From the NCBI GenBank assembly GCA_902788365.1, contig CADAJN010000003.1:58656-122655 (forward strand): a DNA stretch of 64,000 nucleotides, read 5' to 3'. Positions 57,225 through 64,000 of this stretch are shown one piece after another (the stretch's first letter is position 1; every line of letters starts with the position of its first letter). This DNA comes from an uncultured Pseudomonadota bacterium. GTDB taxonomy: Bacteria > Pseudomonadota > Alphaproteobacteria > RF32 > CAG-239. A model generated the notes under the pieces. The model was not told the DNA's origin. It worked only from the letters and a program-made list of their open reading frames with translations, and did no database searches. Position numbers and translations under genes: made by a program.

Positions 57225-57395
57225 ATAGCAAAAACATACATAACCCACTTTTTCATATTTTGCAAGCAAAAAAATACCCGCGTTTCACAAAAAATTTTGC
57301 TCTTTTAACATTTTTGCCAAAAAAACTTGACTTCATTTCCAAAAAAATGTATTCTTAATCCAATCATTTATTACTTACATATAACTTTCAATATT

Positions 57396-57671
57396 ATGAA
57401 CAAGATTTCTATTAAAGACGTTAGAAGTGCGATTGTGTATGTGTGCCAAAATGATGGGCTTCATCTGCAGGACATCAGCGATGAGAAGCTCGCTCGGCTG
57501 GACCTTGTTAAGGACTTGAACATCGGCAATGTTCGACTTGTTAACGTGGCAACCGAACTGCAACGCACCCACAATTTCAACCTGCCGTGGGAGGTGCTCC
57601 GCACCCGCGAGGACAACACCGTCGGCACATTCTTGAAGGTCATCAATCAGTATTTATCATCTGAATGCTGA
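57396..57671 (+). CDS. Hypothetical small protein (91 aa), GC-richer than its surroundings
   Basis: Start MNKISIKD. Followed by a hairpin terminator at 57697-57730. Confidence 0.4.
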   Translation: MNKISIKDVRSAIVYVCQNDGLHLQDISDEKLARLDLVKDLNIGNVRLVNVATELQRTHNFNLPWEVLRTREDNTVGTFLKVINQYLSSEC

Positions 57672-57797
57672 TAGTATGATTACAGTTTTTAACCTCTTAC
57701 ACAAAAGACCGCTCCTTTGTGACCGGTCTTTTAACTTTTTAAACCTTTTTCTTTTTAACTTACCCAAGTAAATTGACGCATATTTCCCTATCATTGC

Positions 57798-58319
57798 TTA
57801 TTTGTAACGCCCCCGATTTTGATAAATTTGCACAAAAGTCCAACCGGTTAAAACTACGCAAGCGACAGCCGACGGATATGCCTGCACATAAAAATTATGA
57901 ATAAACCATAAAAGCAGATTAGAAACCAAAGCCCAACGCATTTGTTGTTCGTTTTTTGTTGTATACATAAAAATAGTATAACTGGCAGAGGCAATAATGG
58001 GAAATAGGCCGATAATACCGAGATTATTAACATAAAGCCCGATAGCCACGTTTATAATTAGCAGAATATAGGTGATATTTTTAGTTAGTTTGCCTTTATA
58101 AGATAAAATATTACGAATAAGGCAAAACACACTGATGACCAGCGCCGCATATGCCGAAAGCGCAATGCAAGCTGCAATTCCGAAAAGCGGATCGCCGATT
58201 TGCCAATACATAAAATCTTTTTTGTTTTTCTTAATAACCGACACAGCAATACAAATTGCCGACAATAGAGAAAATATATTTCCGATAATTAGGTATGCCG
58301 GCATTGTTTCAAATCTCAT
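57798..58319 (-). CDS. Small polytopic inner-membrane protein (YgjV-like, tentative). Paralogue of 59640-60140
   Basis: About 5 TM segments. Shares a QQMR-containing segment with the paralogue. Confidence 0.45.
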   Translation of the reverse strand: MRFETMPAYLIIGNIFSLLSAICIAVSVIKKNKKDFMYWQIGDPLFGIAACIALSAYAALVISVFCLIRNILSYKGKLTKNITYILLIINVAIGLYVNNLGIIGLFPIIASASYTIFMYTTKNEQQMRWALVSNLLLWFIHNFYVQAYPSAVACVVLTGWTFVQIYQNRGRYK

Positions 58320-58635
58320 TTATATCAAGCAAAGGAATTATATTTACAACAGGTTCCTCATACGGGTGAATTTCTTTTATGGCTGAAATTGTTTTGTTTA
58401 AATTTTCTTTTAAGCAGATAACTTCTACTTTCATTTCCGGCTCTTGACTTATTTTATCGTGTTTGCCTAAATACGGTTTTGCCGCATCTAACGGACGCCA
58501 AGTTCCTGTAACTTCGCTATATGATAAACAAGAATCATAATTTCCTATGTGTCCGGCATCAACTTTTTGCAAAGTTGTTTGTAGTTGTTTCAAATGCGTT
58601 TTCGGAATAAAAATTTCTAATTTATATTTTTCCAT
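58309..58635 (-). CDS. Small conserved hypothetical protein (possible Nif3/YqfO insert-domain-like)
   Basis: VDAGHIGNYDSCLSYSEVTGTWRPL...IKEIHPYEEPVVNIIPL resembles the stand-alone metal-binding domain. Tentative. Confidence 0.35.
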   Translation of the reverse strand: MEKYKLEIFIPKTHLKQLQTTLQKVDAGHIGNYDSCLSYSEVTGTWRPLDAAKPYLGKHDKISQEPEMKVEVICLKENLNKTISAIKEIHPYEEPVVNIIPLLDINEI

Positions 58636-58826
58636 ATTTTGTTCCTTTTCTATGTTAGAATAAACTAATACAGAAGAAAATCAATAGGTTTATTAAAAAA
58701 TTCGATAGTTGATGAGAAAGTGCTATTTTCAGAAAATAAACAATCGGACTGAAAATTATGAAAATTTTAAGAAATTAAGCTACAAATTAGAAGAAGTAAG
58801 TGAAATTATATACTTGAAAGAATAAC

Positions 58827-61672: not shown

Positions 61673-61786
61673 TGAAAAATTAGCATTTGTGGGAACAGCA
61701 CAATCGGACTTGGTAAGAGCACGTTCCAACAAAAGCAAAAACCGCTCCTTTCGGAACGGTTTTATAAAATGGTGCCGCCAAATATA

Positions 61787-62752
61787 TTAACGACGGTCGG
61801 ATTCTGTCTTGCTGTTTCTGCTATAATAAGCCTTAACCGCATCTCTGCGTTCTTTTTGCGCTTGTTTAGGATCCATACCATCTTTAACCTTGTTTCTTTC
61901 TTCTTCACGCAAGGCAGCTAGCTCCGGATTGATTTCTTTATAGGTTTCTTCAATAGAACTTCTTGATGTTTTATTTTTTGTCTTCAAATCAGCTACCAAA
62001 TCTACTAAAGTATCAACTTTAGAATCATCATCTGTTTTTCTAATTTTATCATATATCTTAGTTATATGTTCTTTATTATTAAGCATATTCTTATAGTTAA
62101 TTTTTACTTTGTTTAAATAAAGTTTCTTATCTTTGTATTCTTTGCTTTCAATTCCTTTATGAATATATTTTTTGGAAATGCGGTCAATTTCCGGAGCTAA
62201 AGTCGCATCAATTTCTAAAAACTTCTGAAGGTACTCGCAGGCAACCTGGCAAAGTTCATCGTCTGCCATTGCCCATTCTCGAACCTCTTTATTATCAAAG
62301 AATTTAAGCATTTCTTTAGAGTATTTCGTATCTGTTTCGGCAATAGCAGTGGCGAGATAAAGTATTCCGAGGGCTTGCAAATCTCCTCCGGTGCAAAAAA
62401 GACGAGAATTATCATACGGAAACTTTGCATAATTTTCTAAAATAGGGATAATTTGCGGGATCAGATTACCTTTTTCTTGTGGTATTTCCTTTAAAATATG
62501 TGCCATGCTACACATCCCAAAACCAATATATGCACCATCATTTACAAGAGCTTCACTTTGCATTACATGTTTTACATTATCAAATAATGTAAGGCAATAT
62601 TCTTTTTTCTCGCTTTCCGGAACAGATTTAAATTCTCCGTCACCTCTTAATATCAAATAAGCTTTATGAACAATATTTTGAGCTATTTCTCTAAAAGGAT
62701 TAGTCATCTTTTCCCATATTTCGCGCTCGGAGTTGATAGTAGAATTGAACAT
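61787..62752 (-). CDS. Hypothetical protein (321 aa), Lys/Glu-rich C-terminal half
   Basis: Long ORF in the AT-rich island. No motif. Confidence 0.45.
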   Translation of the reverse strand: MFNSTINSEREIWEKMTNPFREIAQNIVHKAYLILRGDGEFKSVPESEKKEYCLTLFDNVKHVMQSEALVNDGAYIGFGMCSMAHILKEIPQEKGNLIPQIIPILENYAKFPYDNSRLFCTGGDLQALGILYLATAIAETDTKYSKEMLKFFDNKEVREWAMADDELCQVACEYLQKFLEIDATLAPEIDRISKKYIHKGIESKEYKDKKLYLNKVKINYKNMLNNKEHITKIYDKIRKTDDDSKVDTLVDLVADLKTKNKTSRSSIEETYKEINPELAALREEERNKVKDGMDPKQAQKERRDAVKAYYSRNSKTESDRR

Positions 62753-63337
62753 TTTTTTCTCCCGATTACAAATTATAAATTATAATGGTACAGTACTTTA
62801 TTTTATTTATTTTGTCAAGTTTTTTTTACAAGTAGGCAAATTTTTATCGGACTGGGATTTTATTTTTCAAAACACTTGATTTTCTTAGCTTTTGCTTAAA
62901 AAGTCCGATAGTAAATGAAAAAATGGTATTTTTGAGACAGGAAAAATCGGACTTTATGAGATTCAGTCCAAACAAAGCAAAAACCGTCCCTTTCAGAACG
63001 GTTTTCAAAAATGGTGCCGCTGAACGATTGTTCCTCGGTGTCTTTACGCCTCGTCACGGCTTCCGGCCGACCTCGCATAAATTCGTTCGGCGACCTCAGC
63101 TCCGGACTTACGACCCCGTAAGTCCGCTTCTGCCAACGATAACCAACAAAAAAAGGGCACTTTTTCAAGTGTCCTTTTTTTATTGGTGCGCTTTGCTTTG
63201 CAAATATCGGACTGAAAATTACGATGATTATAAGCAGTGGGAGTATAAGCAAGGGAAAGCATTTGAAAATGTATAAAAACATATTGAAATAAAATTTATT
63301 GTTTTGTATGTTAAATAAAGTATTTAGGAGATATGAT

Positions 63338-63832
63338 ATGTACCAGTTTAGAAAAAGCATAGAACAGGATAAATCTCAATTAGCGGATTTATTTGCAGAA
63401 AGTTTTGGTTCATTAGCCCTAAATCATGGAGCTTTAGAGCCAATTGCAAACAGGTATTGGGTTGCCCTTTATGAAGATAAAATTGTTGCAGTAACTGGGA
63501 TTTTGCCGATATATAAGTCCGATTTTAGTGGTTACGAAGTTACTTGGACATGCACCTCAAATAAACATCGTAAAAAAGGGCTAATAGTGCAGATGTTACA
63601 AAAGGCTGAGGCGGAACTTCCAAATGACCATATTCCTTTGTATTGTAATTGTTGGCGCATTCGCGATAATGACAAAATCAATATGTATTCGGTCATGAAA
63701 CATATGGATATGCACGAGGTTGTCAGACAACGTATTAAAAGAGTTAATCCGCATAGTATTGACTGTTGTGGTTGTGCTCAATTTCAGAAAGAATGCTATT
63801 GTTGTGGCGACTTGTATATGAAAAACAGATGA
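63338..63832 (+). CDS. GNAT-like acetyltransferase-fold protein with a Cys-rich C-terminal tail
   Basis: GGAG RBS. IVAVTGILPIY...HRKKGLIVQML is a GNAT-like core. C-terminal CCGCAQFQKECYCCG. Confidence 0.45.
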   Translation: MYQFRKSIEQDKSQLADLFAESFGSLALNHGALEPIANRYWVALYEDKIVAVTGILPIYKSDFSGYEVTWTCTSNKHRKKGLIVQMLQKAEAELPNDHIPLYCNCWRIRDNDKINMYSVMKHMDMHEVVRQRIKRVNPHSIDCCGCAQFQKECYCCGDLYMKNR

Positions 63833-63840
63833 GGTTAGAA

Positions 63841-64000
63841 TATGCAAAAATATAAAGCGAGAAATATGCCACATATTAAGGCAACGTTGAGGTCAGAAAA
63901 TAAAATTATTTATGAAGATAATGATACTCTGATAATATACAATAAACCTGCTGATACATACATTGCAGAAGGTGATACGAAAACAATCATCGATAGAATT
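63841..64000 (+). CDS. Partial ORF (5' end only). Possibly an RluA-family pseudouridine synthase N-terminus
   Basis: IIYEDNDTLIIYNKPAD resembles the RluA N-terminal motif. Truncated by the window edge. Confidence 0.25.

Follow-up and report, generated by a model that had tools for sequence, protein, structure and literature searches.

Elements that lack a recombinase of their own are known to accumulate at a conserved target in composite islands of the staphylococcal cassette chromosome (SCC), as cis-mobilizable elements (CIMEs), and in tycheposons. SCC elements, including SCCmec, are integrated at the 3′ end of rlmH by the large serine recombinases CcrAB or CcrC, and the gene is left intact. 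CIMEs involve tyrosine integrases, comprise few large units, and accumulate in tandem with an autonomous integrative and conjugative element (ICE) at the same target. Integrons, in turn, collect cassettes that are mostly promoterless and co-oriented. In Prochlorococcus, islands termed tycheposons grow by repeated integration beside tRNA genes, including that for tRNA-Thr(GGT); newer elements push older ones inward, and partial tRNA copies and degraded elements remain (bioRxiv 10.1101/2020.12.28.424599). Tycheposons are labelled there with a tyrosine recombinase as their hallmark, and an integrase is present in the elements described (bioRxiv 10.1101/2020.12.28.424599). Here we compare these systems with an island at the end of a 64-kb window of DNA (64,000 nt of contig CADAJN010000003.1) from an uncultured rumen alphaproteobacterium, in which unrelated genes are separated by recurring junction modules that carry the motif ATCGGACT.

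The region from 57.2 to 64 kb, which continues to a tRNA gene some 860 nt past the window end, is a fast-changing array of small mobile cassettes, each with one or two genes, that is anchored at this tRNA. The island occupies 7.6 kb between the genes for tRNA-Thr(CGT) and tRNA-Thr(GGT), on the 3′ side of the latter. A cassette is a left arm, one or two genes on either strand, and a right arm composed of a 54-nt inverted repeat, a terminator, and TGGTGC. A sequence-only reading of the window had suggested either cassette accretion by a site-specific recombination system, integron-like or island-like, or one shared regulon, and had called both undescribed. Literature searches did not turn up this system, which is weak evidence of absence, and a single-gene, integron-like array around a serine recombinase and a tRNA appears to be undescribed. 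The claim of novelty does not extend to recombinase-less accretion at a conserved target, for which the precedents above exist.

Judged by analogy, the closest counterpart is the SCC composite island of staphylococci. In both, units are lined up in tandem at the 3′ end of a single conserved gene, flanked by repeats of the target, and some are devoid of a recombinase; in SCC, many units lack the large serine recombinase (LSR) and are presumably mobilised in trans. Here, however, a tRNA gene takes the place of rlmH as the target, and the units are mostly single genes of 0.6-1.5 kb with conserved arms of ~250 nt. Furthermore, the 3′ end of the recombinase gene itself is part of an attachment (att) arm, and the LSR is not a Ccr orthologue. 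In outcome the array is integron-like, but it is not an integron. Shared with integrons are small, functionally unrelated cassettes, an imperfect inverted-repeat site at the end of each cassette, apparent entry at one fixed end, strong strain variation, and a GNAT-rich cargo. Unlike integrons, the array has no IntI and no attC cores, its genes lie in both orientations with their own leaders and terminators, its insertion point is a tRNA 3′ end, and its candidate enzyme is a serine recombinase. With tycheposon-seeded islands and CIME accretion the locus has growth at a tRNA in common, but those systems use tyrosine recombinases. The locus also differs from tycheposons in a junction module derived from a recombinase gene, none of which is described in that work (bioRxiv 10.1101/2020.12.28.424599), and from tRNA islands of tyrosine integrases in that its cassette junctions are not associated with such an enzyme. 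Tandem accumulation of recombinase-less, att-bounded elements at one target recalls CIMEs and ICE accretion in streptococci, from which the locus is set apart by its multi-cassette array.

Junction modules and their source tRNA

The motif ATCGGACT occurs 14 times on the two strands of the window, against 0.86 +/- 0.89 copies in shuffled sequences (0/100 shuffles reach 14), and 10 of these 14 copies fall within 58.7-63.5 kb. The excess that had been noticed is therefore real, and the positions given for it are right within ~10 nt. Inverted pairs of the form AGTCCGAT-N36-ATCGGACT, with up to three mismatches, are found three times (58699, 61659, and 62902), all inside the island, where 0.21 would be expected. 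A fourth pair at 60288-60340 has a spacer of 37 nt, and the 54-nt units defined by these pairs start at 58698, 60287, 61658, and 62901. The motif copies at 2822, 11901, 22536, and 33360 have no module context. Because the other 57 kb holds the motif only as these four isolated copies, an uptake sequence of the DNA uptake sequence (DUS) or uptake signal sequence (USS) type was rejected. A further copy of AGTCCGAT, at 63516-63523, is located inside the coding sequence of the 164-aa GNAT protein (codons K-S-D-F); it is kept in all copies of that gene and probably reflects chance.

A repeat-family search (families D3, D4, D5, and D8) recovered the junction order that had been proposed, which runs from inverted motif to motif, a conserved pre-terminator (..CAAAGCAAAAACC), a hairpin terminator, TGGTGC(C)GC, ATCGGACTGAAAAT, and a leader. 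The stem sequence of the hairpin varies between copies. ATCGGACTGAAAAT occurs exactly three times in the window, each time inside the island. Ahead of the HD and GNAT genes, leaders with 74% identity across 141 nt come after it, and the HD-cassette leader matches 63192-63332 (family D4). Across modules, a promoter scan found real-looking terminators and promoter-like leaders at homologous positions, and the modules may have a regulatory side-role through them.

Several other identities were considered for these modules. An Rfam scan of window positions 54-64 kb and of the related scaffold L001 returned only two tRNAs and a sub-threshold match to the Pseudomonas sRNA P9 (- strand, 60368-60438; 36.5 bits, gathering score 43). 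This match spans the terminator and TGGTGCGC and is probably driven by the hairpin alone. A known RNA family was discarded because none reaches its Rfam gathering score. A repeat akin to miniature inverted-repeat transposable elements (MITEs) or repetitive extragenic palindromic (REP) sequences was also discarded, as the inverted repeat is internal to one arm and the modules are confined to one locus in the window. Likewise, a dif/Xer-like reading of GGTGCGC was dropped when no XerD-arm-like sequence was seen on inspection alone.

The source of the motif lies just past the window. Exact-protein look-up with the GNAT gene retrieved L001, a rumen metagenome scaffold that is 99.8% identical to window positions 56001-64000 and runs past the window end. 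About 860 nt beyond that end, L001 carries a second tRNA gene, tRNA-Thr(GGT), on the - strand (L001 11504-11578, corresponding to window ~64859-64933), which reads TGGTGCCGC-TGATAAGA-ATCGGACT-TACGACC on the + strand. Thus, ATCGGACT is the antisense T-loop of this tRNA, whose 3′ end corresponds to TGGTGCCGC. Its T-loop has an unusual sequence (U54-C55-C56, with GUCCGAUUC instead of the usual GUUCGAAUC), which explains why the 8-mer is rare in the genome. C at position 55 is found at all 30 species loci described below, with a tRNA score that still reaches 66.8 bits, and it predates the cassettes because species with an empty site have it too. The proposed link to tRNA-Thr therefore stands, in that the junction fragments copy a tRNA-Thr 3′ end, but their source is tRNA-Thr(GGT) past the window end and not the adjacent tRNA-Thr(CGT), whose 3′ end (TGGTGCCGG) is unlike the fragments.

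Other insertions involve the same tRNA. In L007 (4308-5757) and L008 (6119-6854), tRNA-Thr(GGT) is the insertion site of another element, which encodes a 405-aa tyrosine integrase. The displaced tRNA fragment in these contigs extends from the anticodon loop to the 3′ end, so that this gene serves no fewer than two integration systems. On the array-free side of the tRNA, its 5′ half (anticodon loop to 5′ end) is duplicated ~196 nt onward in L117 (11591-11827) and in L043 (reverse complement, ~14000-14230), with a GC-rich insert of ~155 nt between the two copies.

Arrays in other species

One genome per species was scanned with the 3′ half of tRNA-Thr(GGT), which was found in 30 species, all represented by metagenome-assembled genomes (MAGs) of uncultured gut or rumen Alphaproteobacteria. 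Motif-bearing modules occur in these genome loci only on the 3′ side of tRNA-Thr(GGT), in arrays of 0 to at least 8 cassettes, whereas empty sites have a native terminator and no module. The 5′ flank is syntenic in most of the 30 loci (a ~700-aa gene, dus, and trkA). The motif is thus confined to arrays 3′ of one tRNA in ~30 species, rather than being a site scattered through ordinary intergenic DNA. When metagenomes were scanned for the 54-nt unit, another 67 loci emerged from samples of rumen and human gut, among which a few high-GC loci are probably unrelated.

The right arm is represented by 58 distinct copies that align over ~150 nt and have the 54-nt core in every copy. All 58 start at one point, ~10 nt ahead of AGTCCGAT, which favours a propagating module over independent deletions. 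The core folds better than shuffled sequences (mean z -2.8), RNAalifold gives no consensus structure for it, and changes in its arms are not compensatory. Structured RNA or single-stranded DNA was therefore rejected as its role, and the noncompensatory changes suggest a protein-binding dyad instead. TGGTGC in the right arm copies the CCA end of the tRNA, and in nine loci the right arm is fused directly onto the true tRNA end, such that the innermost cassette provides the tRNA terminator. The left arm has the consensus TGGTGCGC-N14-ATCGGACT-GAAAAT (61 copies) and is conserved for ~45 nt beyond the motif, with two direct repeats GAWTATAAGCWG. TGGTGC and ATCGGACT are 17 nt apart where they belong to a tRNA (53 contexts), but 22-23 nt apart in cassette junctions (67 cases).

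Cassette cargo and movement

The cargo amounts to 108 proteins in 64 clusters. Families include GNAT, HD, HAD, NUDIX, inositol monophosphatase, Fic, NERD, methyltransferases, and PD-T4-3, and no Phage_integrase or other integrase is among the cargo families listed from the arrays. An identical 164-aa GNAT protein is encoded on at least 23 contigs in 8 neighbourhoods. In L003, the GNAT cassette is 98.8% identical to that of the window and the adjacent core genes are 70% identical; in L002, L003, and L006, 99% identity to the window starts at 63208, within ATCGGACT. Other cargo recurs as well. The gene pair for a YgjV-like membrane protein and a 108-aa protein forms a cassette in other arrays too, with different surroundings in L044 and L045, a YgjV homologue sits between leader and end module in L003 and L006, and a copy of the 321-aa gene in L005 is 94.6% identical and broken into ORFs of 68 and 154 aa.

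Variation is also evident within the species. Contig L043, whose flanks match the window at 95-99% identity, has no hydrolase cassette, and a methyltransferase/DUF6996 cassette takes the place of the HD, 321-aa, and GNAT cassettes. Homology of the window to strains L043 and L046 ends exactly at 58750. Cassettes distal to the tRNA are common to the window strain and L043, as predicted by insertion beside the tRNA. Cassette content therefore differs between strains, contrary to the invariance that the earlier reading had named as a refutation, and sequence comparison indicates that cassettes move on their own, within and between species. Confinement to the tRNA, strain variation, and the mobile GNAT cassette all favour cassette accretion over the shared regulon that had been offered as its alternative.

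Units are not always single genes. In L125 (2991-9972), two motif sites enclose a 7-kb ‘cassette’ with genes for GmrSD_N and AAA_15/AAA_21 ATPases, a defence-like content. No circular form of a cassette was found; L114, L058, and L105, considered as circular or tandem cassette contigs, represent arrays and not circles, given that the identity between their flanking modules is no more than 73-93%. Scans with the tRNA att sequence and with the leader yielded no match in viral contigs.

A large serine recombinase at related loci

The 64-kb window contains no recombinase gene, in line with the earlier remark that no integrase gene lies inside it. The search beyond its end that had been advised did reveal a candidate at related loci, an LSR that is the likely enzyme. 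In L060, a 565-aa ORF directly before a junction has Resolvase (PF00239), Recombinase (PF07508), and Zn_ribbon (PF13408) domains. This three-domain architecture and the catalytic serine motif are those of the LI/A118, Bxb1, and phiC31 integrases, and the motif R23-V24-S25 is invariant in 12 homologues. Intact copies of the gene are found in two arrays, L060 and L124, whereas L002, L044, L051, L059, and L088 have only remnants ahead of junctions. In L124 the LSR unit is internal, with a cargo cassette between it and the tRNA.

A database search in which 8,000 candidates were scored gave 397 homologues at E<=1e-20. One of these, P0002 (89% identical to the LSR), is positioned in L117 directly against tRNA-Thr(GGT), at the same chromosomal locus as in the window, and P0017 and P0020 (73%) abut this tRNA directly in another genus (L118, L119, L125, and L126). 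Unlike in phage serine integrases, the ORF ends inside the tRNA 3′ end, which is that of tRNA-Thr in L117, L118, L119, L125, and L126. More distant relatives in L123 (8001-9608, 40%) and L127 (835-2403, 36%) end inside the antisense 3′ ends of tRNA-Met(CAT) and tRNA-Leu(CAG), respectively; L127 is an unverified ‘Bacteriophage sp.’ scaffold deposit from human faeces. The Thr, Met, and Leu endings define this LSR family as tRNA-3′-end-associated serine recombinases. To our knowledge, phage-type serine integrases target protein-coding genes rather than tRNAs.

The last ~50 codons of the LSR gene are the junction module. KSPI corresponds to AGTCCGAT, LSDF to ATCGGACT, and KWC(R)stop to TGGTGCCGCTGA, and KPFD..L spans a terminator-like hairpin. 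Because the C-terminus is conserved in homologues down to 40% identity, this tail is real coding sequence, and the noncoding cassette modules are therefore relics or mimics of the 3′ end of the LSR gene. A tblastn search with LSR residues ~470-545 matches the junctions of nearly every array, including window 63184-63249. We consider it likely that both cassette arms derive from the ends of an LSR-encoded integrative element.

Full LSR elements of >10 kb are present in L117 and L120-L123. In L117 and L123, a search across 10-11 kb did not reveal the left end of the element, and phage structural genes are absent within 8-10 kb in all five. These elements share a loose gene set (DUF3768 and at least one DNA methyltransferase, sometimes with Fic, ankyrin, or autotransporter genes), and L117 and L120-L122 also carry a small resolvase. 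A PDB sequence search with the LSR gave no chain at E<=0.001. Among NCBIfam recombinase models it matches only XisF (76 bits, cut-off 375), and it is not of the Ccr family, the CcrA/CcrB models being matched only weakly and only by the small resolvase.

P0044, P0059, P0104, P0105, and L060 1514-3208 are read-through ORFs in which the LSR tail or a module is fused to a neighbouring cassette (e.g., recombinase plus Fic), and such fused ‘proteins’ are an annotation artefact of stop-free junction variants. In addition, a divergent pair of small serine recombinases is located at the tRNA-distal array end in L002 (6365-7774), L044 (11550-12116), L060 (1-955), and L080 (1102-2625). One member is without the N-terminal catalytic region, and its partner reaches 269.9 bits against the Mpi master-invertase model (cut-off 272). 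As they adjoin polysaccharide clusters in L002 and L044, they are probably phase-variation invertases, and the small recombinases of L002, L044, L060, and L080/L115 were rejected as the cassette enzyme. An inversion model was likewise rejected because leaders keep their orientation beside reverse-strand cargo.

Proposed mechanism and alternative explanations

On balance, we favour a mechanism in which the LSR builds the array, to which we assign a probability of roughly 0.6. The enzyme would recombine the att site of an element or cassette with an attB site in tRNA-Thr(GGT) that covers its final ~20 nt, between the CCA end and the unusual T-loop. Incoming DNA would bring a new terminator and possibly a new 3′ end, leaving the tRNA intact. 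Cassettes that lack the LSR but have both arms would be moved in trans and inserted beside the tRNA, with older ones pushed outward, and homologous recombination between ~75-90% identical junctions would then reshuffle sub-modules. In serine integrases, the attB and attP half-sites differ by ~5 bp, attP being longer, and crossover is at a central 2 bp. The TGGTGC-to-ATCGGACT spacings of 17 and 22-23 nt are consistent, by analogy, with such an offset. In this respect, and in the att-like 54-bp dyad, the system would resemble phage serine integrases, with the tRNA site attB-like and the cassette site attP-like.

Several observations weigh against this mechanism. No LSR gene is present in the window or in the 8-kb chunks of the 30 species, and, as noted, neither circular cassettes nor viral matches were found. 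Near-identical segments have their ends at CGGACT, just after ATCGGACTTT, and at TGGTGC rather than at one point, and left half-sites are not conserved among junction copies. Different copies of the GNAT cassette combine pre-terminator and terminator sub-modules independently of each other, a pattern typical of homologous recombination, which clearly acts here, and not of one site-specific crossover. Boundaries can be irregular, the right edge of the hydrolase cassette having no motif and L043 having two tandem motifs. The 54-nt inverted repeat, which is the most serine-integrase-att-like part, stays intact in integrated cassettes. Finally, serine integrases do not normally recombine attP with a hybrid site, as serial insertion beside the tRNA would require.

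Homologous recombination acting alone is an unlikely explanation. It would make the junctions portable homology arms used in double crossovers after DNA uptake, with no recombinase acting today, and would resemble the minimal mobile elements of Neisseria. The independent assortment of sub-modules fits this idea. Most arrays lack a recombinase, and break points coincide with the borders of the short stretches that are best conserved, where identity-dependent crossovers would be expected. However, junctions that are 73-93% identical, with perfect runs of at most ~20 nt, are poor RecA substrates, and the copying of the tRNA end and the recombinase tail, the confinement to the 3′ side of one tRNA, and the in-register tRNA fusion are left unexplained. 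Alternatively, each cassette might be the eroded, immobile remnant of a separate full LSR element. LSR remnants of differing length (L002, L044, L051, L059, and L088) and the full elements in L117 and L120-L123 are what accretion and decay would produce, but decay would not give 58 right arms one shared start position. Nor would it leave one cassette near-identical in at least 8 arrays, across species with 70% core identity and with no LSR sequence beside it, and we judge this scenario quite improbable.

Three further explanations carry still less weight. The 405-aa tyrosine integrase beside the displaced tRNA-Thr(GGT) fragment is a very improbable builder of the array even though its Phage_integrase gene adjoins the array in two contigs, L007 and L008. 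Because the fragment reaches the anticodon loop, crossover would have occurred there and not at the junction motifs; the flanking DNA is free of any junction sequence, and the gene is missing from all other loci. This integrase, the only one of the tyrosine type encountered, scores 48 bits against TIGR02249, for which the cut-off is 265. A shared regulon or RNA element, with ATCGGACT as a transcription-factor site or the modules as a 3′-UTR or small-RNA structure kept for regulation, would account for the terminators, the promoter-like leaders, and the folding of the 54-nt core. Yet ordinary intergenic DNA is without the motif, the arm changes and the Rfam scores speak against a conserved RNA, and neither the identity of the motif with the tRNA nor cassette turnover would be explained, all of which makes regulation highly unlikely as the reason for these modules. 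Least credible is an integron or a CALIN (an attC cluster without an integrase), a label raised by the sequence-only reading and withdrawn here. Unrelated single-gene cassettes, each with an imperfect inverted repeat at its end, and a GNAT-rich content do match chromosomal integrons. Nonetheless, IntI is lacking, the arrays are anchored at a tRNA, genes with their own promoter-like leaders occupy both strands, and the inverted cores of the 58-module consensus are AGTCCGAT/ATCGGACT and not RYYYAAC/GTTRRRY, although no dedicated attC model was run.

A broader proposal can be entertained, albeit tentatively. The arrays of gut and rumen Alphaproteobacteria might represent an independently evolved integron-like platform for gene capture, in which an LSR uses the 3′ end and T-loop of a tRNA as a fixed site, single-gene cassettes from a large pool are mobilised in trans, and the arms are relics of the LSR 3′ end. 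Sister recombinases might operate likewise at tRNA-Met and tRNA-Leu.

Features of the island

Coordinates are collected in Table 1. Among the gene calls made earlier, two Imp-YgjV membrane proteins, the alpha/beta hydrolase, a weak HD domain, and GNAT were upheld, but the ‘Nif3-like’ protein has only a sub-threshold CutA1 match. The 91-aa ORF at the tRNA-distal end marks the oldest part of the array. The full junction at 60287..60429 aligns with 57 other copies, and a homologue of the long junction follows the GNAT pair in L001 (11160-11332).

Table 1. Features of the island and related units elsewhere in the window
Feature	Position	Strand	Remarks
Post-tRNA GC-rich units	9040-9290		Probably two, after tRNA-Pro
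Post-tRNA GC-rich unit	30297-30481		One, after tRNA-Arg(TCT)
Post-tRNA GC-rich units	56792-57107		Two 158-bp tandem copies after tRNA-Thr(CGT)
tRNA-Thr(CGT)	57149..57224	-	ARAGORN; Rfam tRNA 65.3 bits; left (far) island edge in this strain
91-aa ORF	57396..57671	+	No family match; tRNA-distal; also in strain L043
Imp-YgjV membrane protein	57798-58319	-	Pfam
108-aa protein	58309-58635	-	Pfam; weak, sub-threshold CutA1 match
End-module core, 54 nt	58698..58751	+	Left arm degenerate AATTCGAT; right arm ATCGGACT 58743-58750
Alpha/beta-hydrolase cassette	58751..59599	+	Gene 58827-59591; Pfam; missing from L043 and L046
Second Imp-YgjV cassette	59600..60286	+	Gene 59640-60140; Pfam
Full junction	60287..60429	+	AGTCCGAT 60288-60295; ATCGGACT 60333-60340; pre-terminator; terminator 60367-60393; TGGTGCGC 60399-60406; ATCGGACT 60422-60429, 23 nt past TGGTGCGC start
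HD-cassette leader (putative right att arm)	60430..60553	+	Promoter-like TTGAAA-17-TATTCT at 60500-60528
HD-domain protein gene	60554..61672	+	Weak HD match; stop codon within end module (..GTCCGATAGTTGATGA)
Junction	61658..61778	+	TGTCCGAT 61659-61666; ATCGGACT 61703-61710; terminator 61738-61763; TGGTGCCGC 61770-61778
321-aa protein cassette	61787..62752	-	No family match; opposite strand
Long junction	62846..63020	+	ATCGGACT 62846-62853, 48 nt, AGTCCGAT 62902-62909, 36 nt, ATCGGACT 62946-62953; terminator 62978-63007; TGGTGCCGC 63012-63020
‘U unit’	63012..63183	-	GC-rich, strongly structured; in tRNA sense, ends in last 12 nt of tRNA-Thr(GGT)
GNAT-cassette putative left att arm	63184..63337	+	TGGTGCGC 63184-63191; ATCGGACT 63206-63213, 22 nt past TGGTGCGC start; direct repeats GATTATAAGCAG (63226), GAGTATAAGCAA (63241); promoter-like site 63284-63312
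164-aa Cys-rich GNAT	63338-63832	+	In GNAT cassette 63338..64000
215-aa GNAT, start only	from about 63842	+	In GNAT cassette; cut by window end
ATCGGACT	58743, 60333, 60422, 61703, 62846, 62946, 63206	+	
ATCGGACT (= AGTCCGAT)	60288, 62902, 63516	-	

GC-rich units of ~160-190 nt follow several tRNAs, and each ends in the last 12-18 nt of its own tRNA plus a terminator. The U unit of the island holds a T-arm-derived hairpin, CGGACTTACG..CGTAAGTCCG, and 38 distinct aligned copies of such U units fold more stably than shuffled sequences (mean z -5.6). GGAGCTGAGG and a T-arm-built hairpin are common to the Arg and Thr(GGT) units. These units, which resemble the 178-bp repeats of the E. coli tyrT locus, may be scars of integration, miniature mobile elements, or small RNAs.

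Implications

For annotation, the arrays call for caution with MAGs, as several of their gene calls are read-through ORFs across junction modules. The tRNA-specific serine integrase family has a clear signature, namely an ORF that ends in the antisense CCA of its target tRNA. Serine integrases with short sites are prized for genome engineering, and natural attB-like and attP-like candidate sites are now available for this family. If the proposed mechanism is true, it would constitute an independent route to integron-style arrays, in which a serine recombinase acts at a tRNA and each cassette brings its own promoter and terminator. It would also explain how uncultured gut Alphaproteobacteria with small genomes exchange flexible genes, including those for acetyltransferases, small hydrolases, methyltransferases, and defence-like functions.

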